A DNA stretch of 61,212 nt, taken from an uncultured Gammaproteobacteria bacterium. GTDB taxonomy: Bacteria; Patescibacteriota; Patescibacteriia; 2-12-FULL-57-11. Numbering within the stretch: the stretch's first letter is position 1; the number at the start of each line of letters is the position of its first letter. A program made the translations under genes and the position numbers. Positions 53,520 through 61,212 of the stretch are shown piece by piece. The notes below the pieces were generated by a model. That model was not told where the DNA came from, ran no database searches, and saw nothing but the letters and a program-made list of their open reading frames with translations. The stretch spans positions 1 through 61,212 of the forward strand of contig CAZYLV010000006.1 of the NCBI GenBank assembly GCA_964648865.1, written 5' to 3'.

Positions 53520-55331
53520 GTGGCTTTGACCGATCGCTTCCGGCCGCGCCGTCCCGCACCGTCGGGCGCGCGCGACGACCTCAACAGACGGCTCTTGAGC
53601 CGGCTCTCGGCGCGCCGCGTGCCCACGTGGCGTCAGTTGCGGTACCTGCGCGCCGTGCTCGGCCCCGTCGAGCGCCGCGTCGCGCTGGGGCTCATCGCCG
53701 TCATCGCCGTCTCGCTCGGCGTCATGGGCGTGCGCGTCTGGCAGGAGCACGTCGTCTCGGTGCCGGCACGCGGCGGCGAGTACATCGAGGGCGTCGTCGG
53801 CGCGCCGACCTACATCAATCCGCTCTACGCCGGCGCCAACGAGGTCGACCTCGACCTGACGCGGCTGGTCTACAGCGGGCTGATGCGCATGACGCCCGAA
53901 GGCACTGTCGTCCCCGACCTTGCGGAGACCGTCGAGGTCAGCGAGGACGGCAAGACGGTGACTGCGCAGCTCCGCGGCGGCCTGCGCTTCCACGACGGGA
54001 TCGCGTTGACCGCAGATGACGTGCTGTTCACGTTCGAGGCCATCAAGAATCCGTCCTACAAGAGCCCCTACGCGCCGACCTTCCGCGGGGTGACCGTGGC
54101 CGCGGCGGACGAGCGCACGGTGACCTTCACGCTCACCGAGCCCTACGCGCCGTTCCTGACCGCGCTGACCGTGGGCATCCTGCCCGCGCACCTCTGGCGC
54201 GACATCCCGCCGCAGACCGCGCACCTCGCCGAGTTCAACCATAAGCCGGTCGGCAGCGGGCCGTACCGCTTCAAGGCCTTCGCCCGCGACAAGGACGGCG
54301 CCATCCGCAGCTATACCCTGGAGCGTTTCGCCGAGGCCACGTCGCCGCCGTTCGTCGGACGGCTGGCGTTCCGCTTCTATCCCGACTTCGAGTCCGCCGC
54401 CGAGGCCTTCCGCCTCCGGCAGATCGACGGCCTGGGCTTCCCGCCGGCGACGCTGCGCGAGCGTCTCCGCGGCCGGCTCGACGCCCGCGAGTACCAATTG
54501 GCGCTGCCGCAGTACACGGCGTTGTTCTTCAACCAGAAGCGCGCCGAACCGCTCAAGGACGCCAAGGTGCGCGAGGCCCTGACCCTCGGCATCGACCGCG
54601 AGCTGCTCATCCGCGAGGTCCTGGCCGGCGCCGGGGAGCTCGTCGACGGTCCGGTCTTCGCGGGTTTCGCCGGCGTCACCTCCACGCCGCCCCGCCCGGC
54701 GCTGGACCCGGCGCGCGCCGCGGCGCTGCTCGACGAGGCCGGATGGACGCTGCCCGAGGGCGAGACGCAGCGGGCCAAGCTCGCCAAGGACAGCCGCGGC
54801 CGCGTCACGGCCACGACCAGCTTGTCGGTCACGCTCGTCACCGTGCAGGCCGAGGAGACGAGCCTCGCCGCCGCGCGCGTGGCCGAGGCCTGGCGCGCGC
54901 TCGGGGTCGGCGTCACGGTGGAGGAGGTGCCCGCGGCGCGCCTGCAGCGCGAGGTGCTCCGCCCGCACGCCTACGACGTGCTGCTCTACGGCCAGATCCT
55001 CGGCAAGGATCCGGACCCCTTCCCGTTCTGGCACAGTTCGCAGGCCGCGGAAGGCGGCCTCAACCTGGCGCTCTACGCCAACCGCAACGCCGACGCCCTG
55101 CTCGAGGAGGCCCGCACCGAGCAGGACCCGGAGCTGCGCGGCGCGCTCTACACGCAGTTCGCGACGCTGTTGTCCAAGGAATACGCCGCCGTCTTCCTCT
55201 ATCGGCCGTTGTATCCGTACTTCGTCACCGCCGCGGTCAAAGGCATCCATGCCGACGAGGTGGCCGTGCCGGCGGACCGCTTCGCGGGGGTCAGCGATTG
55301 GTACATCAAGACGCGCAAAGGGTGGAGGTAG
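53520..55331 (+). CDS. ABC transporter substrate-binding protein, family 5 (OppA/DppA-like), membrane-anchored
   Basis: LVYSGL, PDLAE, RFHDG..LTADDV.FT, GSGPYRF and VREAL...IDR motifs. Confidence 0.9.
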   Translation: MALTDRFRPRRPAPSGARDDLNRRLLSRLSARRVPTWRQLRYLRAVLGPVERRVALGLIAVIAVSLGVMGVRVWQEHVVSVPARGGEYIEGVVGAPTYINPLYAGANEVDLDLTRLVYSGLMRMTPEGTVVPDLAETVEVSEDGKTVTAQLRGGLRFHDGIALTADDVLFTFEAIKNPSYKSPYAPTFRGVTVAAADERTVTFTLTEPYAPFLTALTVGILPAHLWRDIPPQTAHLAEFNHKPVGSGPYRFKAFARDKDGAIRSYTLERFAEATSPPFVGRLAFRFYPDFESAAEAFRLRQIDGLGFPPATLRERLRGRLDAREYQLALPQYTALFFNQKRAEPLKDAKVREALTLGIDRELLIREVLAGAGELVDGPVFAGFAGVTSTPPRPALDPARAAALLDEAGWTLPEGETQRAKLAKDSRGRVTATTSLSVTLVTVQAEETSLAAARVAEAWRALGVGVTVEEVPAARLQREVLRPHAYDVLLYGQILGKDPDPFPFWHSSQAAEGGLNLALYANRNADALLEEARTEQDPELRGALYTQFATLLSKEYAAVFLYRPLYPYFVTAAVKGIHADEVAVPADRFAGVSDWYIKTRKGWR

Positions 55332-55502
55332 GCGACGACGGGCGCGCGCCCTTCGGGGCCGCGGTCCGTCCGCGCTGCCGCAGCGGACGTCCGCTGCGCT
55401 CGGCCGACACGGTGGTCGGCCTGCGCGAGCCCCTCAGGCCGCGCGCCCGCCGTCAGTGGGGGTTGTCTGGAAGGGCGGGGCGTGGTACAACAGCGGACCT
55501 AC

Positions 55503-55589
55503 GGGCGAGTGGCGGAACTGGCAGACGCACTAGCTTCAGGAGCTAGCGGGCGCAAGCTCATGCGGGTTCGACTCCCGCCTCGCCCACCA
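55503..55589 (+). tRNA. tRNA-Leu (CAG)
   Basis: CTAGC-ttCAGga-GCTAG anticodon arm, long variable arm and encoded CCA; serves as the integration target. Confidence 0.96.
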
Positions 55590-57122
55590 AACAGGAAATG
55601 TCAAATTTTTCGGCGGCGGCGAACTGGCTGGCTCGTCCCGCCGCCCCTCGGGGCGAGCCAGAAATTCAGCGACAAAATCGTACGGCGACACAAAATCCCA
55701 GTCCGCACATTTGCCCGCAATGCGGCGGTTCGTTCCAATTTTTCTCACCAATTGCGAAATCTCCATGAGAGATTTCGCCGAGGCGATTTTTCCCGCTTGA
55801 ATCAAGGTATTTACGAAGTCCCGCGTTGGTTCGATCCAGCCGCTCATCCGCTTTTGTCCAAGAGTCATTTTCTCACCTTTCAGGGTGATTTTTTGTTCCA
55901 CCAGTTCTTCTTTTTTGCGCTTGTAGGTATCTTCGTCAATAAAGCCGTCAAGATAACCCTCAAGCAGTTTGTCCAGCTTTTCCTGCACCACAGTCATTTT
56001 CTGATTTACCTCTTGGACAAAAGCGTCCGCTGATTGGGCCTGCTTCTTTTCTTCATCTTCCAAATATACCAACATTTCGCTCGCCCAATCAGCGGGCAAA
56101 GCAATTGTTTGCGCTTTCTCTACCATCTGCCGCGCAAGCTCTTGTTCTTGGATGTAGGGTGCGGCGCAATGGCCTTGCTTTCTGGTACAGCGGTAGTATC
56201 TATACAGTCCGCCATTTCCTCGCGCAAACTGCGCCGTGAACATTGCGCCGCAAGTGCAGTGAAACAGTCCGCAAAAAGGAAAATCATGCTTTTGTCTGCT
56301 CTTGCGCGGTTTGCCTCGTTCTTTCAACACTTCCTGCGCCCGCGCAAATAATTGCTTTGAGATGAGCGGCTGGTATTTGCCTTCAAACGGCTCGTCTTTC
56401 CAGCGCATAATGCCGATGTAGAGTTCATTGGTGAGGATGTGATACATGGCAGAATTGGAACGCGGTTTCCCTGTTTCGCTTTTCACGCCAAACTCGGCGA
56501 GGCGATGGGCAATGCTGGTAAGCCCATGATTGCCAGTCGCAAACTCCTCAAAAACCTTCTGCACTGCTTTGGCTTCTTTTGGTTCTGGCACAATATTCCG
56601 CAGTCGGTGGTCATATACATAGCCCAGCGGTTTTTGTCCGGGCCATTCGCCTCGCCGCAGTTTGGCGCGATTCCCTCGCCGAACATTTTCGGACAGATTG
56701 TCCACGTAATATTTCGCGTTAGAGAGAGCAATGGATAAAAAGAACTTGCCTGATGGCGTATTCTCAAATGCGAAGGTAGGAAATTTTAGACCTGCCAATT
56801 TCCCAGTATCCAGTAGGTAAATGATCCTTCCGCCATCAACTGAATTTCTGGACAATCTGTCCGGGTTCCACGCCAGAATACCAATTTGATGAGGAAGACC
56901 GCCCTCAATTTTATCGAGCAGGGCGTTAAACACTTCTCGCCCTGGGACTTTGGCAGTTTGCTTTTCAATGAAGGTATCGATCACCTCAAGTCCCTCGCGT
57001 TCGGCAAACTCTTTTGCCTCATGCAGTTGCGCTTCCAAACTTAACACTTGGCGGTCTTCCTCATCCGTGCTTTTGCGGATGTAGAGAAAGTATTTTGTAG
57101 GTTGTGGTATTGGATTATTCAT
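55536..57122 (-). CDS. Large serine recombinase (resolvase, recombinase, zinc ribbon and coiled-coil domains)
   Basis: YIRKST.EED.Q..SL..Q, PDRLSRN, LSENVRRG...K..RGEW.G..PLGY, YIG, CTCG and YYRCT motifs. The ORF ends antisense inside tRNA-Leu. Confidence 0.95.
   Translation of the reverse strand: MNNPIPQPTKYFLYIRKSTDEEDRQVLSLEAQLHEAKEFAEREGLEVIDTFIEKQTAKVPGREVFNALLDKIEGGLPHQIGILAWNPDRLSRNSVDGGRIIYLLDTGKLAGLKFPTFAFENTPSGKFFLSIALSNAKYYVDNLSENVRRGNRAKLRRGEWPGQKPLGYVYDHRLRNIVPEPKEAKAVQKVFEEFATGNHGLTSIAHRLAEFGVKSETGKPRSNSAMYHILTNELYIGIMRWKDEPFEGKYQPLISKQLFARAQEVLKERGKPRKSRQKHDFPFCGLFHCTCGAMFTAQFARGNGGLYRYYRCTRKQGHCAAPYIQEQELARQMVEKAQTIALPADWASEMLVYLEDEEKKQAQSADAFVQEVNQKMTVVQEKLDKLLEGYLDGFIDEDTYKRKKEELVEQKITLKGEKMTLGQKRMSGWIEPTRDFVNTLIQAGKIASAKSLMEISQLVRKIGTNRRIAGKCADWDFVSPYDFVAEFLARPEGRRDEPASSPPPKNLTFPVWWARRESNPHELAPASS
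55584..55732 (+). repeat. Inverted repeat A, copy 1 (149 bp)
   Basis: Reverse complement of 57249-57397; identical by eye. Confidence 0.92.
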
Positions 57123-57248
57123 AAATTTTGGCGTGGAATAATGATTAATGTTCGGCGAGGGGGAAAAAATCGCCTCGATTCCGCCGAAGGCGGAATAATT
57201 GGTGAGAAAAATTGGAATGAGCTTTGCTCATCAATCGCTTCGCGATTG

Positions 57249-57397
57249 CGAACCGCCGCATTGCGGGCAAATGTGCGGACTGGGATTTTGTGTCGCCGTA
57301 CGATTTTGTCGCTGAATTTCTGGCTCGCCCCGAGGGGCGGCGGGACGAGCCAGCCAGTTCGCCGCCGCCGAAAAATTTGACATTTCCTGTTTGGTGG
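57249..57397 (-). repeat. Inverted repeat A, copy 2 (149 bp)
   Basis: Reverse complement of 55584-55732. Degenerate homology continues left to about 57160. Confidence 0.92.
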
Positions 57398-57405
57398 CCG
57401 ATAAT
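57377..57405 (+). promoter_or_regulatory. Junction promoter spanning the internal att-like core
   Basis: TTGACA (57377-57382, from arm A), 17 nt containing TGGTGG, then GATAAT (57400-57405, from arm B). Confidence 0.6.
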
Positions 57406-57604
57406 ACAATCAGCGCGAACCGAATTTGGAGAGCGGGCGAGCAAAATATGACTGCAAAAATTTTGTTAAAAATTTTTGCAACACACTCGCCGCGCGGATG
57501 CGGGGGCGGGCGGCGCATTCCCTCCCCTTGAACCCCTTCCTGCGCCGCCCGAAAAAATCCGCGCGGCGAGAGGAGTGTTTGCCCCGACGAATTGGGGCGG
57601 GCGC
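57392..57604 (+). repeat. Inverted repeat B, copy 1 (213 bp)
   Basis: Reverse complement of 59252-59464; overlaps repeat A copy 2 by TGGTGG. Confidence 0.92.
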
Positions 57605-57614
57605 GCCACCGATT

Positions 57615-57638
57615 GAACGATCCGAATCGTTCTTTTTT
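57615..57638 (+). terminator. Intrinsic terminator after arm B
   Basis: GAACGAT-ccga-ATCGTTC followed by TTTTTT. Confidence 0.65.
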
Positions 57639-57817
57639 GTTTTTCCCGCGCCTTGCCCCAGCCCGCCCGTGCGCGGCGCGGGTTTATGGAACTCCCTTTG
57701 ATTTTGGCGGGTTGCTATTGACATACGCTAGGAATTTTGCTTAAATAATGAGTCCAACCTGGGTTAGGTTTGGATGAGTTTTCGGCTCTTTACCAACTGA
57801 ACAAGAAGGAGGAAACG

Positions 57818-58306
57818 ATGACCCTGACAGCGAAAGACATTCACGATCAGCTCCACCAACTGCTCGGCTTCCAGCCGGGTGTCATCGTGGACTGCACGCG
57901 TGTCGGCAACCAGCCTGTGATGGACTTCGTCGGATCATCCAGGAGCACCTTCAACAACCCTGGTGCTTACATCATGCTCGCCGACAAACTGGCCGGTCTC
58001 ATGGTGCACCTCTCGGAAGTCGTTCCCAGCGAACAGAACAAGCTCGTCATGCTCTGCGATCTTTTCGCGGAAGGCAACGAGCCCCAGCCAGGCGTCGAGT
58101 GGTCGCACGAGAACCGCGTCAAAGGAGCGATCCTCGGCGTGATGTCGTGCCTGCTCATGCTCTTCCGGCACCCGGCACTTCAACTCGTCTTCGCCGCCCA
58201 GCCGGAAAGCCTCGTCATTGCCACCATCGAGAACGGCAAGATCGTGGTGCAGAAGAAGCAGGGCGAGAAGATGGTGAAGTTCCTGCAGGACAACGAGAAG
58301 AAATAA
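57818..58306 (+). CDS. Hypothetical cargo protein (162 aa)
   Basis: AAGGAGG SD before ATG 57818; TTGACA at 57718 upstream; first gene of the two-gene cargo operon. Confidence 0.75.
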   Translation: MTLTAKDIHDQLHQLLGFQPGVIVDCTRVGNQPVMDFVGSSRSTFNNPGAYIMLADKLAGLMVHLSEVVPSEQNKLVMLCDLFAEGNEPQPGVEWSHENRVKGAILGVMSCLLMLFRHPALQLVFAAQPESLVIATIENGKIVVQKKQGEKMVKFLQDNEKK

Positions 58307-58316
58307 GGAGGTCCAA

Positions 58317-59114
58317 ATGGGAAAAATCTGTGGCGCTCCCGGGTGCGCAAACCTGACGGCAAGCGCCGCAGGTAAGGCTCCTCGGAGAATCAACGGCGTT
58401 GAACTCTGTCGTGGTTGCTACCAGCGCATCTGGGAGCTCTCGAAGAAGATCAACAAGCCGATGGAACAGATCGTGCGTGAAGGTGCGCCGCTTCCCAAGC
58501 GTCCCTTGCCTCGTATCGAGACAACGTGTGCGAGAGAGGGGTGCGATGTGGAATTGCCGGAGAATGCCGGTCCGAACGTGCGTCGGACCATCGGCCTCCT
58601 GCACGTGTGCAATCCTTGCTACCAGTTGGCATGGGAGCACTCGGTGAAGAAGGGAGTTTCGATCGAGGAAGCATTCAGGGAGATGAAGCCGAAGCACTGG
58701 CGGCCCGATCCGCCGAAAACGGTTCGGTGTTGCCTGCCGTGGTGCAACGGTGAATTCGTCCCTGACGAGTCCTCCGAGGTGAGCGACGGCGTTCATGCAT
58801 GCGGTAAGTGCCGTTCCTACCTCAAGGTGCTCGGACAGCGTCCTCGCTACAAAGCCAGGGACTGGAAGGAACTCGCGAAGTATGCCATCAAGGGTATCGT
58901 CGCAGCTCCCAACACGCCGGAGATGTGCGCCATGTCCTGGTGCAGCAACGTAGAGCGCTCTTACCGTCGGGGTCCGAACGGTGAGGCCATCTGCAACTCG
59001 GATGGAATCTACCTCTACCAATACTCCAGGAGGCATGAAATCACATTTGAGGAGGCGTTTCGGACGGCTCCACCCCCGCGGCTTCTTCACACGCGTGGTA
59101 GGAACAAGGGATGA
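58317..59114 (+). CDS. Cargo protein with four tandem C-x4-C...C-x2-C/D zinc-finger-like repeats
   Basis: TAAGGAGGT SD and four Cys-pattern repeats (see findings). Confidence 0.8.
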   Translation: MGKICGAPGCANLTASAAGKAPRRINGVELCRGCYQRIWELSKKINKPMEQIVREGAPLPKRPLPRIETTCAREGCDVELPENAGPNVRRTIGLLHVCNPCYQLAWEHSVKKGVSIEEAFREMKPKHWRPDPPKTVRCCLPWCNGEFVPDESSEVSDGVHACGKCRSYLKVLGQRPRYKARDWKELAKYAIKGIVAAPNTPEMCAMSWCSNVERSYRRGPNGEAICNSDGIYLYQYSRRHEITFEEAFRTAPPPRLLHTRGRNKG

Positions 59115-59251
59115 TTCACTTCCACAAGCGAGAAGGAGGACAACATACGGCCGGTGGGAAATTCGAGAAATCGAAAAGTACCGCCGGCTCTTTCATTTTT
59201 CAAAGAACTGTGATACAATTTTTTTACTTTTCGACCTTTATTACACTTGGT

Positions 59252-59464
59252 GCGCCCGCCCCAATTCGTCGGGGCAAACACTCCTCTCGCCGCGCGGATT
59301 TTTTCGGGCGGCGCAGGAAGGGGTTCAAGGGGAGGGAATGCGCCGCCCGCCCCCGCATCCGCGCGGCGAGTGTGTTGCAAAAATTTTTAACAAAATTTTT
59401 GCAGTCATATTTTGCTCGCCCGCTCTCCAAATTCGGTTCGCGCTGATTGTATTATCGGCCACCA
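59252..59464 (-). repeat. Inverted repeat B, copy 2 (213 bp), ends in CCACCA (attR-like)
   Basis: Reverse complement of 57392-57604. Confidence 0.92.
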
Positions 59465-59470
59465 GAGGAT

Positions 59471-59499
59471 TTGACAGACGCCGCAAAATCTGGCATACT
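59471..59499 (+). promoter_or_regulatory. Host sigma70 promoter upstream of rnj
   Basis: TTGACA (59471-59476), 17 nt, TG-g-CATACT (59494-59499). Confidence 0.7.
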
Positions 59500-59704
59500 G
59501 GCCACGATGATTCCTGCGTCCGGCCCCTCCGCCGGCGCCCGCCGAGCCGAGCTCGGCCCGTTCTTTCCGTAATCAGCGGACGCTCTCCGAAAGGTCCTTT
59601 CGGAGACCCTCCATTGATTATTCGTGACGTCCGTCCGCACGGAGACGCCGGCCTGCGTATCGCCTGCGCCGTCCACGGTATCCGGGACGTCCCTATCCAC
59701 ACAC

Positions 59705-61212
59705 ATGACACCCCAGACGAACCCGTCGCCGTCCGCCCCCCGGCGTGATTCGGCGCATGCCGGCCGCCCGCGCGGCCGCCACTTCCGCGGCCGCGGCCGC
59801 GGTCCGCAGCAAGGCGCAGCGCGGCCCCAGGCCCAGACCGTGAAGGAGTTCACGGCGGCCGACGGCAAGAAGCTCAAGGTCATCGTGCTCGGCGGCCTCG
59901 AGGAGGTCGGCCGCAACTGCACGCTGGTCGAATACGAGAACGACATCATCTTCATCGACATGGGGCTGCAGTTCCCCGAGGAGGACCAGCCCGGGGTGGA
60001 CTACATCATCCCCAACATGTCCTACGTCCGCGGCAAGGAGAAGAACATCCGCGGCGTCATCGTCACCCACGGCCACTACGACCACATCGGCGGCATCCCC
60101 CACATCGTGCCGCGCATCGGCAATCCGCCGGTCTTCGGCCTGCCGATGACGGCCGGCATCATCCGCAAGCGCCAGGAGGACTTCGAGGGCGCCAAGATCA
60201 ACATCCGCGAGGTGCGCATCGACGACCGGCTCGTGCTCGGCAATTTCCAGATCGAGTTCGTGCACATCAACCACTCCATCCCGGACGCCGTGGCCGTGGT
60301 CGTGCATACCCCGGTCGGCACGCTGATCCACACCGGCGACTGGAAGTTCGACTACACGCCCGTCGGCGCGCCGCCGGCCGACTTCATCAAGTTGGCCTCG
60401 CTCGGCGCCCGCGGCGTGCTGGCGCTCATGGGCGACTCCACCAACGCCGCGCATTCCGGACATCAGATCTCGGAACGGGAGATCGCCAACACGCTGCGCC
60501 TGATCCTCGAGAAGGCCGAGGGCCGCGTCATCGTCGGCACCTTCGCGTCGCTCCTCGGCCGCGTCCGGCAGATCTTCGACATCGCCCAGGACCTCGGCAA
60601 GAAGGTCGCGCTCGACGGCTATTCCATGAAGACCAACGTCGAGATCGCGCGGGTCCTCAAGTACATCAACATCAAGCCGGGCACGCTCATCGACATCGCC
60701 CAGATCAACGATTTCCCCAAGGACAAGGTCGTGGTGGTCTGCACCGGCGCCCAGGGCGAAGAGCGCGCCTCGCTGATGCGCATCGCCAACGACGACCACC
60801 GCTCGGTGCGCATCCAGCCGGGGGACACGGTCATCTTCTCCTCGTCCATCATCCCGGGCAACGAGCGCACCGTGCAGCGCCTCAAGGACACGCTCTACCG
60901 CAAGGGCGCGGAGGTCATCCATTACCAGATGATGGACGTCCACGCGGGCGGTCACGCCATGAAGGAGGACATCAAGCTGATGCTGCTCCTCCTCAAGCCC
61001 AAGTACTACATCCCCATCGAGGGCAACCACTTCCTGCTGCGGGAGAACGCCAAGGTCGCCGCCATGATGGGCATCCCCAAGGAGAACGTCTTCGTGGCGG
61101 ACAACGGGCAGGTCATGGAGTTCGTGGCGGGCAAGGGCCGGCTCACGGACACCAAGGTCGTCTCGGACTACGTCTTCGTGGACGGGCTCGGGGTGGGCGA
61201 CATCTCCGAGGT
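59705..61212 (+). CDS. rnj: Ribonuclease J, N-terminal part (runs off window end)
   Basis: Manual translation: ...VIVLGGLEEVGRNCT...IDMGLQFP...PGVDYIIP...THGHYDHIGG...HTGDWKFD...MGDSTNA...HAGGHA. Not in the ORF track because it is truncated. Confidence 0.96.
   Translation, partial: MTPQTNPSPSAPRRDSAHAGRPRGRHFRGRGRGPQQGAARPQAQTVKEFTAADGKKLKVIVLGGLEEVGRNCTLVEYENDIIFIDMGLQFPEEDQPGVDYIIPNMSYVRGKEKNIRGVIVTHGHYDHIGGIPHIVPRIGNPPVFGLPMTAGIIRKRQEDFEGAKINIREVRIDDRLVLGNFQIEFVHINHSIPDAVAVVVHTPVGTLIHTGDWKFDYTPVGAPPADFIKLASLGARGVLALMGDSTNAAHSGHQISEREIANTLRLILEKAEGRVIVGTFASLLGRVRQIFDIAQDLGKKVALDGYSMKTNVEIARVLKYINIKPGTLIDIAQINDFPKDKVVVVCTGAQGEERASLMRIANDDHRSVRIQPGDTVIFSSSIIPGNERTVQRLKDTLYRKGAEVIHYQMMDVHAGGHAMKEDIKLMLLLLKPKYYIPIEGNHFLLRENAKVAAMMGIPKENVFVADNGQVMEFVAGKGRLTDTKVVSDYVFVDGLGVGDISE

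Follow-up and report, generated by a model that had tools for sequence, protein, structure and literature searches.

In insertion sequences that pass through a circular form (IS911 with its pjunc promoter, IS2 and IS30), a promoter formed at the circle junction drives the transposase and exists in the circle only, its -35 coming from one end and its -10 from the other, so that it is lost when the ends separate on integration. In the integron platform, the Pc promoter beside attI drives promoterless cassettes. Two unique segments bracketed by inverted repeats, with a recombination or junction site, make up both the yeast 2-micron plasmid and the class-E genome of herpes simplex. The tycheposons of Prochlorococcus are reportedly small cargo-carrying integrative elements that reside at tRNA genes in streamlined genomes, some of them with large serine recombinases; to our knowledge, none has an internal inverted attP, modules bracketed by inverted repeats, or an attP that mimics the T-loop. 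IS110 elements produce a bridge RNA from a promoter that is restored at the junction (PMC11208160). In serine integrases, the distance from the centre to the outer DBD2 motif is reported to be 5 bp greater in attP than in attB (PMC11722253).

The window analysed here, a 61-kb contig stretch, contains a 3.9-kb integrative element (W; L-numbers denote loci of related elements) that encodes a large serine recombinase and is inserted at the CCA end of a tRNA-Leu(CAG) gene (Table 1). Similarly to the tycheposons, W is a small cargo-carrying element at a tRNA gene. Its parts follow in the order tRNA-core'-A'-recombinase-A-core-B-cargo-B'-core'-host. The 528-aa ORF carries the Pfam domains Resolvase (PF00239), Recombinase (PF07508) and Zn_ribbon_recom (PF13408), the same Resolvase, Recombinase and Zn-ribbon domains as the large serine integrases of phages and islands (Listeria A118/LI Int, SPbeta SprA, Bxb1 and phiC31), and has 94 relatives at 53-92% identity. 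The frame crosses A' and the core, site 1 encoding residues ~464-513, and then continues past the core into the tRNA body, antisense to it, for 44 nt. Arm A, in which the recombinase frame has its final ~50 codons, forms an inverted repeat with 55580-55732 (153 nt, 99% identity), and arm B (57392-57608) forms one with 59248-59464 (217 nt, 100% identity). The core in which the two arms overlap appears as its reverse complement at site 3 (TCGGCCACCA) and as TCGCCCACCA at site 1; CCACCA is common to the three sites and the core is identical in all of them apart from a single mismatch (C versus G), which travels with the left half, as expected for the attP of a large serine recombinase. Site 2 (A-core-B) is a complete, inverted attP that resides permanently, as a spare, inside the integrated element. 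As in the phage systems, attP and attB share a short core; here, however, attB is the generic 3' end of a tRNA (T-loop and CCACCA), the recombinase ORF runs across attP, and a second intact, inverted attP is kept, flanked by perfect repeats of 150-217 nt.

Table 1. Features of the element and of its integration target, in window coordinates.
Feature	Position	Strand	Basis
tRNA-Leu(CAG), integration target	55503..55589	+	ARAGORN; Rfam tRNA 54 bits
Large serine recombinase, 528 aa	55536..57122	-	ORF list; Pfam
T-loop GGTTCG of tRNA-Leu(CAG), 13 nt from CCACCA	55565-55570	+	sequence
Site 1, attL type: core TCGCCCACCA + arm A' (reverse complement of arm A)	55580..55732	.	inverted repeat I3
CCACCA, last 6 nt of tRNA-Leu(CAG), crossover region	55584-55589	+	sequence
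Relic: diverged continuation of spare recombinase 3' end	57163..57248	+	alignment A2
Open frame carrying recombinase C-terminus across core into arm B (...VWWPIIQSARTEFGERASKI)	57224..57451	+	ORF list
Arm A of site 2, P half of spare inverted attP	57249..57401	+	inverted repeat I3
Promoter-like TTGACA, 17-nt spacer, GATAAT, straddling core	57377..57405	+	11/12 consensus matches
Core TGGTGGCCGA, common to arms A and B, 10 nt	57392..57401	.	overlap of repeats I1 + I3
P' half-site of attP with tRNA T-loop mimic	57398..57423	+	sequence
Distal arm B, palindromic hairpins	57454..57605	.	folds
Intrinsic terminator (predicted), 7-bp stem + T6	57615..57638	+	terminator scan
Conserved backbone motif TTGCCCCAGCCCGCCCGTGCGCG, start of cargo module	57653..57675	+	12 loci
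Cargo's own promoter-like site TTGACA, 17 nt, TTAAAT	57717..57745	+	sequence; also in L015/16
Cargo: ORFs of 178 aa and 265 aa	57770..59114	+	ORF list
Site 3, attR type: arm B' + core TCGGCCACCA, then host DNA	59248..59464	.	inverted repeat I1; unitig 59435-59900

Left of arm A, the relic aligns with the recombinase 3' end apart from one swapped hairpin and a 30-nt insert, and the terminator scan placed two terminator-like hairpins on its minus strand (57232-57216 and 57189-57173), a short distance ahead of the recombinase start. On the other side of site 2, the motif TTGCCCCAGCCCGCCCGTGCGCG that begins the cargo module is present at 12 loci with unrelated cargo and adjoins site 2 in 11 of the 12. 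No Pfam family was found for either of the two cargo ORFs, the second of which consists of Cys-rich repeats. An apparent hairpin followed by a T-tract was seen by eye at ~59141-59195, before B'; it is not among the hits of the terminator scan.

The complete layout recurs in at least 13 distinct related elements of Patescibacteria (L007, L014, L015/16, L019/L065, L022, L024, L029, L030, L035, L045, L049, L050 and L063), and the A pair flanks the recombinase at about 50 further loci, every one beside the 3' end of a tRNA. Patescibacteria carry elements of this family in abundance, and no earlier description of the family or of the layout of W was found in the literature searched. A search of viral contigs and plasmids for further copies of the W type returned no match. 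An excised-circle junction wrongly joined into an integrated copy during assembly could imitate such a layout; repeat-rich graphs of related elements do mislead assemblers, and one locus (L020) is a palindromic contig with a tRNA flank at both ends, itself a graph-walk artefact. However, the junctions between relic and arm A (57248/57249) and between arm B and cargo (57608/57609) are impossible from a mixture of the simple integrated form with the circular one, and both junctions nevertheless occur in unitigs of public runs, where 57200-57421 (run X1) spans relic-A-core-B and 57392-57720 spans B into the cargo. Other unitigs cover the attL junction (55200-55613) and B'-core-host (59435-59900), and tRNA-A'-recombinase-A is present in a run of another study. 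The two repeats, A and B, form separate unitigs with a depth somewhat above that of most neighbouring unique unitigs, which lends weak support to two copies of each. Moreover, the homology to the recombinase 3' end continues, diverged, left of arm A, and the layout is found in many independent assemblies, including an 867-kb contig that carries L007. On these grounds (junction unitigs, diverged relic, recurrence) an assembly artefact was rejected, its probability being negligible.

The first ~30 nt of arm B constitute a recombinase half-site. Within it, CGAACC (57416-57421) lies 18 nt from TGGTGG, as against 13 nt in the tRNA; the 18-nt spacing is also found in L006, L007, L015, L019, L041 and L063, and is 17 nt in L014. 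The difference between 18 and 13 nt agrees with the 5-bp outward shift of the DBD2 motif in attP relative to attB described for serine integrases (PMC11722253). Near-identical attP sites and B arms (L019, L022, L024 and L030) are inserted in different tRNA genes, including those for tRNA-Ala and tRNA-Val, and L015/16, whose recombinase is 92% identical to that of W, are inserted in a tRNA-Val gene. Because attB is a generic tRNA 3' end, relatives use many tRNAs, and an attP that imitates the universal T-loop and CCA end with a 5-bp shift explains how one recombinase family can serve so many targets. These sequences indicate that the target is chosen by the protein, which would read CCACCA and the T-loop, and not by an RNA. 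Past the half-site, the recombinase frame that entered arm B from arm A ends at a TGA (57449-57451); in relatives the equivalent frame, read by hand, gives ..ENARTFFE.. and a stop. This frame would be the end of the recombinase gene in the attP or flipped configuration, and its tail up to 57451 is the only plausible coding sequence in arm B, where ORFs of 91 and 104 aa had no match in Pfam.

It was originally predicted that a promoter is assembled at this junction, with the -35 taken from arm A and the -10 from arm B at 17-nt spacing. The sequence bears this out: TTGACA (57377-57382) and GATAAT (57400-57405) match the consensus at 11 of 12 positions, and the repeat boundaries agree, since the -35 lies in arm A while the -10 has its first two bases in the core and its last four in arm B. 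Sites 1 and 3 each miss one half, as had also been claimed; in the same sense, site 1 reads GCGAGG (antisense tRNA) at the -10 position and site 3 reads GTCTGT at the -35 position, and a promoter scan of both in the orientation of site 2 returned no promoter-like site. The further claim that the promoter exists only in an attP-type junction is correct with regard to sites 1 and 3, but the junction is permanent and not a transient state of the circle; as site 2 is fixed in the integrated element, the promoter is always assembled. The likeness to the circle junction promoters of insertion sequences thus extends to the origin of the two hexamers from two ends, whereas here the promoter points away from the recombinase body, to the cargo, and, thanks to the spare attP, is still intact after integration.

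Matches of at least 11/12 number two in the 61-kb window against 0.04 expected from GC-preserving shuffles, and matches of at least 10/12 number five against 0.86; TTGACA is perfect in all five, and since the other strong matches share it, the consensus is apparently in use in this genome. A match of at least 9/12 was found at the same aligned place in 10 loci; the closest relatives with such a match are L001, L015/16, L019, L022, L024, L030, L035 and L045, several of them with a perfect TATAAT. In 12 more distant relatives of the same architecture it is weak or absent (7/12 or less), and it therefore cannot account for the existence of the spare attP. Among the close relatives, the promoter's conservation is confounded with the constraints of the attachment site and of the coding sequence. 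The main cargo ORFs point from site 2 towards site 3 in all 13 complete elements, and in two of them (L024 and L029) a cargo ORF starts 14-61 nt past arm B, no other promoter-like site having been found in their gap between arm B and cargo or in their distal arm B. Like the layout with its conservation, the half-site register and the lack of covariation with the target, the quality of the promoter sequence is a direct observation; the firing of the promoter, termination at the hairpins and the purpose of the spare attP are inferred. The promoter is plausibly functional, and the pair of hexamers most likely represents a real outward promoter of the spare attP.

Beyond the recombinase frame, the distal part of arm B comprises an AT hairpin (57454-57479), a 14-bp outer stem (57486-57499 with 57557-57570) enclosing a GC hairpin module (57507-57551, loop TTCCCTCCCCTTGAACCCCTTCC), and a further hairpin (57573-57605). 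The GC module is seen only in B arms, in either orientation relative to the core. The hairpin-T6 terminator that had been predicted ~225 nt downstream of the promoter and before the cargo is present in the sequence, just outside repeat B: GAACGAT-CCGA-ATCGTTC (57615-57632) followed by TTTTTT, detected on the plus strand only and kept, with a different loop, in L015/L016. The segment 57411-57640 folds with -107 kcal/mol (z = -5.2), and the complementary strand with -99 kcal/mol (z = -3.8), as expected because the DNA is palindromic. The plus strand is better by 5-8 kcal/mol in W and L015; among 16 arms, the A->B strand is the more stable in only five, with no consistent strand bias. Alignment between clades is possible for no more than the ~41 nt of arm B nearest the core, which make up the half-site. 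Between W and L015, distal B is 83% identical, as against 88% for the recombinase DNA; in the L019 group the relation is reversed (95-99% against only 85-87%), and since this constraint exceeds what a terminator needs, it hints at a further sequence-specific function or at frequent exchange. Rfam searches of the W arm and the L019 arm at permissive thresholds gave only noise. What stands of the ~225-nt structured RNA in the original prediction is the strong fold; a conserved RNA does not emerge, as the arms align between clades in the half-site only, the module orientation varies and Rfam is empty. For covariation among homologous arms, the one distinct relative of the W-type arm B (L015/16) is too few, and an alignment of ten sequences is homologous in the half-site only.

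The three metatranscriptomes of the source study contained no sequence of the host or the element. In three other biomes, metatranscriptome contigs, which come without strand or end information, cover arm B of L019-type elements only; such contigs fit an abundant stable RNA, and carry-over of multi-copy DNA explains them equally well. One contig from the RNA libraries extends through the core and into arm A, which lies upstream of the predicted start. If the junction promoter made a discrete structured RNA of ~225 nt that acted in trans and not as a guide, either as an antisense RNA perfectly complementary, over 217 nt, to the B' in cargo transcripts that read through or as a regulator of recombinase activity or module flipping, it would account for a unit delimited by promoter and terminator, for the strong fold with its better plus strand in W and L015, for the exact reverse complementarity of arm B and B', for the high conservation of distal B in the L019 group and for the arm-B contigs. 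It is nevertheless quite unlikely: distal B is unalignable between clades and, between W and L015, less conserved than the recombinase DNA, the module orientation flips, the A->B strand is favoured in five of 16 arms only, one RNA-library contig reaches back beyond the predicted start, and the cargo operon apparently ends in a hairpin and T-tract of its own before B'. A combined reading, in which the spare attP is an operator-promoter occupied by the recombinase and also the source of a functional B-arm RNA acting in trans on recombination or flipping, for instance bound to the serine recombinase or paired with the inverted B', is very improbable; if true, it would place directionality control at the RNA level instead of in a protein directionality factor. 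Less credible still is a bridge-RNA-like guide, in which the B-arm RNA would pair with target and donor and programme the serine recombinase. Its one argument is the analogy with IS110, where a structured non-coding region beside the recombinase gene is combined with a junction-spanning promoter (PMC11208160); both systems have a promoter across joined ends and a structured non-coding stretch downstream. The enzyme there, however, is a DEDD RuvC-like/Tnp protein, and here it is a large serine recombinase of the standard kind, equipped with DNA-binding domains of its own; the junction is permanent, guide loops for target and donor are absent, the arms do not covary with the target, no RNA structure is conserved across clades, and the register shift between attP and attB fits recognition by protein. 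When distal B was compared with attB for the longest common substring and complement in 10 elements, with 200 shuffles each, nothing was significant. One 11-mer in L015 was borderline in that comparison. Near-identical attP sites in different tRNAs, together with the lack of complementarity to the target beyond chance, lead us to reject a bridge-RNA-like role, and nothing that was tested speaks for the proposed junction RNA as partner or guide of the recombinase. To find that a large serine recombinase works with an RNA partner would have been highly surprising; as such a partner is unsupported, the system of W gives genome engineers no reason to expect a programmable RNA.

The whole is best explained, with a probability of roughly 55%, by taking 57377-57638 as the B-side arm of the spare attP, with a real promoter and with an RNA that is neither guide nor cofactor. 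From the core outward, arm B carries the P' half-site, whose T-loop mimic is set further from the crossover, by 5 bp, than the T-loop of the tRNA, and then the final 17 codons of the recombinase frame with their stop, which would be used in the excised circle or in a flipped recombinase module. The GC-rich palindromic hairpin modules and the plus-strand terminator follow, and would probably close transcription that enters or starts in attP and insulate the cargo module. The hexamers overlap the recombinase binding sites, and bound recombinase could occlude the promoter. In W, the transcript would stop at 57638 and be a leader-like by-product; in relatives that lack a terminator or a promoter of their own (L024 and L029), it would enter the cargo genes. 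The main competitor is that the hexamers are a mere by-product of recombinase-binding and coding sequence, with no start there, and that the hairpins work as DNA (in protein binding, as cruciforms or in replication) or are selfish palindromic insertions. The -35 does sit in recombinase codons and the P half-site, and the -10 in the AT-rich linker between core and T-loop mimic; 12 relatives have lost the promoter while retaining the architecture, hairpin modules occur in both orientations without strand bias, and hairpins have been swapped for one another in the relic. We consider this account unlikely, given that so good a match is very rare in this genome (0.04 expected), that a terminator predicted to act on the plus strand only lies just downstream, and that the cargo is co-directional in 13 of 13 elements, two of which have no other candidate promoter.

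With the spare attP read as a site with a real promoter, a strong promoter-like sequence is built into an attachment site that is kept permanently as an inverted copy, and the site becomes a candidate control point at which recombinase occupancy, cargo expression and module orientation may meet. Similarly to the 2-micron plasmid and the herpes simplex genome, W consists of two segments in inverted repeats, and on excision it would form a circle that carries two sites in inverted orientation; it differs from them in being a bacterial chromosomal integrative element in which no replication function was identified and in which flipping by the recombinase is putative. With the integron it shares an outward promoter at a recombination site, co-directional with variable cargo, although the recombinase is of the serine and not of the tyrosine type and a single cargo module is bracketed by inverted arms. 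In W, the terminator and the cargo's own promoter intervene between the site and the cargo, while in L024 and L029 the cargo follows directly after the arm, without a promoter of its own.

Site 2, the inverted spare attP at which arm A, the core and arm B meet, belongs permanently to the integrated element and is not confined to a transient, circle-type junction as the original prediction had supposed. Two inverted repeat pairs sharing a 10-nt core, detected by a repeat search, delimit three sites around a recombinase and a cargo region, and the GC content of ~70% falls to 50-60% over 55.6-59.5 kb. In public DNA runs each junction was recovered in a unitig of its own: attL (55200-55613), relic-A-core-B (57200-57421), B into cargo (57392-57720), cargo into B' (57729-59275) and B'-core-host (59435-59900). 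The A and B repeats formed separate unitigs, and their depth, somewhat above that of most neighbouring unique unitigs, points weakly to two copies of each; in a run of another study, tRNA-A'-recombinase-A is present next to a host flank that differs slightly. A mis-joined circle junction is ruled out by the stretch leftward of site 2's arm A, which remains homologous, though diverged, to the 3' end of the recombinase gene, with one hairpin swapped and a 30-nt insert (the relic, 57163-57248).

Features of the element and of the adjoining host sequence
Feature	Coordinates	Strand	Description
tRNA-Leu(CAG)	ends 55589
Site 1 (attL type)	55580-55732		tRNA...TCGCCCACCA, then A'
Recombinase	between sites 1 and 2		large serine recombinase, 528 aa, reads towards tRNA; Resolvase, Recombinase and Zn-ribbon domains
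Arm A pair	55580-55732 and 57249-57401		inverted, 153 nt, 99%
Site 2			A-TGGTGGCCGA-B; complete attP, inverted
Arm B pair	57392-57608 and 59248-59464		inverted, 217 nt, 100%
Promoter-like site	57377-57382 and 57400-57405	+	TTGACA, 17-nt spacer, GATAAT; 11/12 in consensus scan, top site of region
Main hairpin module	57507-57551 and 59305-59349
Hairpin and T6	57615-57638	+	terminator scan; just outside repeat B
Separate cargo promoter	57717-57745		TTGACA-17-TTAAAT
Cargo	between sites 2 and 3		two ORFs without Pfam family
Site 3 (attR type)	59248-59464		B'...TCGGCCACCA, then host
Promoter-like site of host	59471-59499		TTGACA-17-CATACT; begins 7 nt past attR, just upstream of RNase J gene
RNase J gene	59624-61210		GTG start as listed would give a ~75-aa low-complexity N-terminal extension

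The same architecture recurs among 94 relatives of the recombinase, which come from Patescibacteria MAGs and from metagenomes and share 53-92% identity with it. Inverted repeats of 100-180 nt, mostly 94-100% identical and in some cases decayed (80-93%), flank the recombinase in ~60 of the 94 loci; where no pair was detected, the contig mostly breaks off within the gene or close to it. The recombinase 3' end adjoins that of a tRNA in most loci, and the tRNAs involved include Val, Ala, Leu, Arg, Lys, Ile, Tyr and Trp. The complete three-site layout, of which no description was found in the literature searched, is present in at least 13 distinct elements (loci L007, on an 867-kb contig, L014, L015/16, L019/L065, L022, L024, L029, L030, L035, L045, L049, L050 and L063), and the attP-type junction is therefore fixed and conserved in the integrated form.

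The promoter-like site itself was found as proposed: the locus reads ...GAAAAATTTGACATTTCCTGTTTGGTGGCCGATAATACAATCAGCGCGAACC..., with both hexamers at the claimed spacing and split across the arms, so that site 1 retains only the -35 (its -10 position being GCGAGG) and site 3 only the -10. Scanning both strands of the window gave two sites scoring at least 11/12, against 0.04 expected, and five scoring at least 10/12, against 0.86 expected, all five with a perfect TTGACA. The RNase J gene has one of these five immediately ahead of it, which suggests that this genome uses the canonical consensus. The aligned position scores at least 9/12 in the window element, L015/16, L001, L019, L022, L024, L030, L035 and L045, several of which carry TTGCAA-17-TATAAT.

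On balance we consider that the site-2 promoter probably fires. This judgement rests on the quality and rarity of the sequence, on its conservation in the close clade, on the direction of the main cargo ORFs, which run from site 2 to site 3 in all 13 complete elements, and on L024 and L029, where the first cargo ORF begins 14-61 nt past arm B and no further promoter-like site was found in that gap or in distal arm B. It is also favoured by the predicted terminator ahead of the cargo, which in the window lies downstream of the promoter on the plus strand only and is retained, with a different loop, in L015/16. Against firing stand scores of at most 7/12 in 12 relatives of the same architecture, the separate cargo promoter carried by the window element and several relatives, and the overlap of the hexamers with recombinase codons and binding sites, which confounds promoter conservation in the close clade. 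Should the promoter fire, a recombinase occupying the spare attP would probably block it. In addition, the relic has two terminator-like hairpins on the minus strand, immediately ahead of where the recombinase gene begins, so that site 2 is bracketed by predicted terminators facing outward.

The original prediction further held that the transcript is a structured RNA, speculatively one for the recombinase, with the IS110 bridge RNA as precedent; an RNA associated with the recombinase finds no support here, and its guide form is contradicted. TGGTG(G/C)-18 nt-CGAACC is common to all clades (spacing 17 nt in L014), and in the tRNA 13 nt separate CCACCA from CGAACC, which is antisense to the T-loop GGTTCG; attB and attP are known to differ in that the DBD2 motif is 5 bp nearer the centre in attB (PMC11722253). 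The shared motif and the shift in spacing mark the ~30 nt nearest the core in the proposed RNA, on sequence grounds, as a recombinase binding site. The recombinase frame has no stop ahead of the core: at site 1 it enters the tRNA on the antisense strand, and at site 2 it gives ...VWWPIIQSARTEFGERASKI with a stop at 57449-57451, and in relatives hand translation of the same frame gives ...ENARTFFE..stop. As the invariant part is GCGCGAACC, conservation of the peptide is inseparable from that of the site.

As for a guide function, L019, L022, L024 and L030 have a near-identical attP and arm B and target tRNA-Ala, tRNA-Val and other tRNAs, and the L015/16 recombinase, 92% identical to that of the window, targets tRNA-Val(GAC); what these targets share is limited to CCACCA and the T-loop. 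In the 10 elements compared, distal arm B was no more identical or complementary to attB than in 200 shuffles, one 11-mer match in L015 being borderline. Together with the recombinase's own DNA-binding domains, these results set arm B of the window apart from the bridge RNA, whose defining features (PMC11208160) it lacks. The 11-nt GCGAGAGGAGT, present at window 57565-57576 and in L015 distal B, matches at every position the acceptor/T-arm antisense of the tRNA-Val that L015 targets and may be a relic tRNA fragment, albeit statistically borderline.

Beyond ~45 nt, arm B consists of palindromic modules. The predicted fold of 57411-57640 is strong (-107 kcal/mol, z = -5.2). The complement also folds well (-99 kcal/mol, z = -3.8), which is attributable to palindromic DNA, and only 5 of 16 arms fold more stably on the A-to-B strand. 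The main module, a 7-14-bp GC stem whose loop carries two C4-6 or G4-6 runs around TTGAA-like centres, was found in the B arms of 16 loci besides the window, in either orientation relative to the core, and never outside B arms; about half of the loci miss it. On the A-to-B strand it takes the C-form in the window, L015/16, L038, L054 and L055, and the reverse-complementary G-form in L001, L019, L022, L029, L030, L035, L045, L047 and L050. Its stems vary by compensatory substitutions (L019 vs L045 vs L038). In a ten-sequence alignment of the arms, the window/L015 and L019 groups are homologous only in the first ~41 nt. Distal arm B shows 95-99% identity within the L019 group, against 85-87% for recombinase DNA (L019, L001, L022, L024, L029, L030 and L049; ~100 nt, e.g. 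L019:5547-5660), so that this non-coding stretch either changes more slowly than the adjoining gene or is passed between elements; the window and L015 show the opposite (83% against 88%). A sequence-specific function of L019-type distal B, or its frequent exchange between elements, thus seems likely from these comparisons.

The organism was not found in the metatranscriptomes of the source study. Three RNA libraries from groundwater, digester and wetland (X24, X25, X26) each contain a unitig of L019-type arm B only (L019:5565-5724; depth 2.5-3.9), none of which covers the recombinase or cargo of these elements. They may represent a stable RNA, or DNA carry-over, in keeping with the two copies of L019-type arm B and its near-identity across many elements; one unitig reaches over the core to arm A sequence lying ahead of the predicted start, and one continues into host-like flank.

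The window-like orientation of the recombinase module occurs in ~50 loci. In eight others (L017, L032, L057, L060, L083, L090, L092 and L093) the tRNA, on the plus strand, lies just upstream of the recombinase, abutting the arm on that side of the gene, and the module is flipped between its inverted repeats, the gene reading towards site 2, where it would regain its arm-B-encoded end and a 57615-type terminator. Each of these eight contigs breaks off within the far repeat or close to it, and the flip may be either a real inversion or the assembler's choice. The L020 contig (L020:1-7050), with a 2-kb terminal palindrome and a tRNA-Ala flank at both ends, is a graph-walk artefact arising from element repeats, a caution for automated annotation of these tRNA-targeting recombinase elements. 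Cargo differs completely between relatives (L019/L022, L024, L045, L049, L063, L007, L050), and by N-terminal sequence appears to include prolyl-tRNA-synthetase-like, radical-SAM-like, nucleotidyltransferase-like, HAD-like, pyrF-like and band-7-like proteins and XRE-type regulators. At the start of the cargo module, a 23-nt motif, TTGCCCCAGCCCGCCCGTGCGCG (window 57653-57675), is kept in 12 loci with unrelated cargo, adjoining site 2 in 11 of them and the outer arm in L014.
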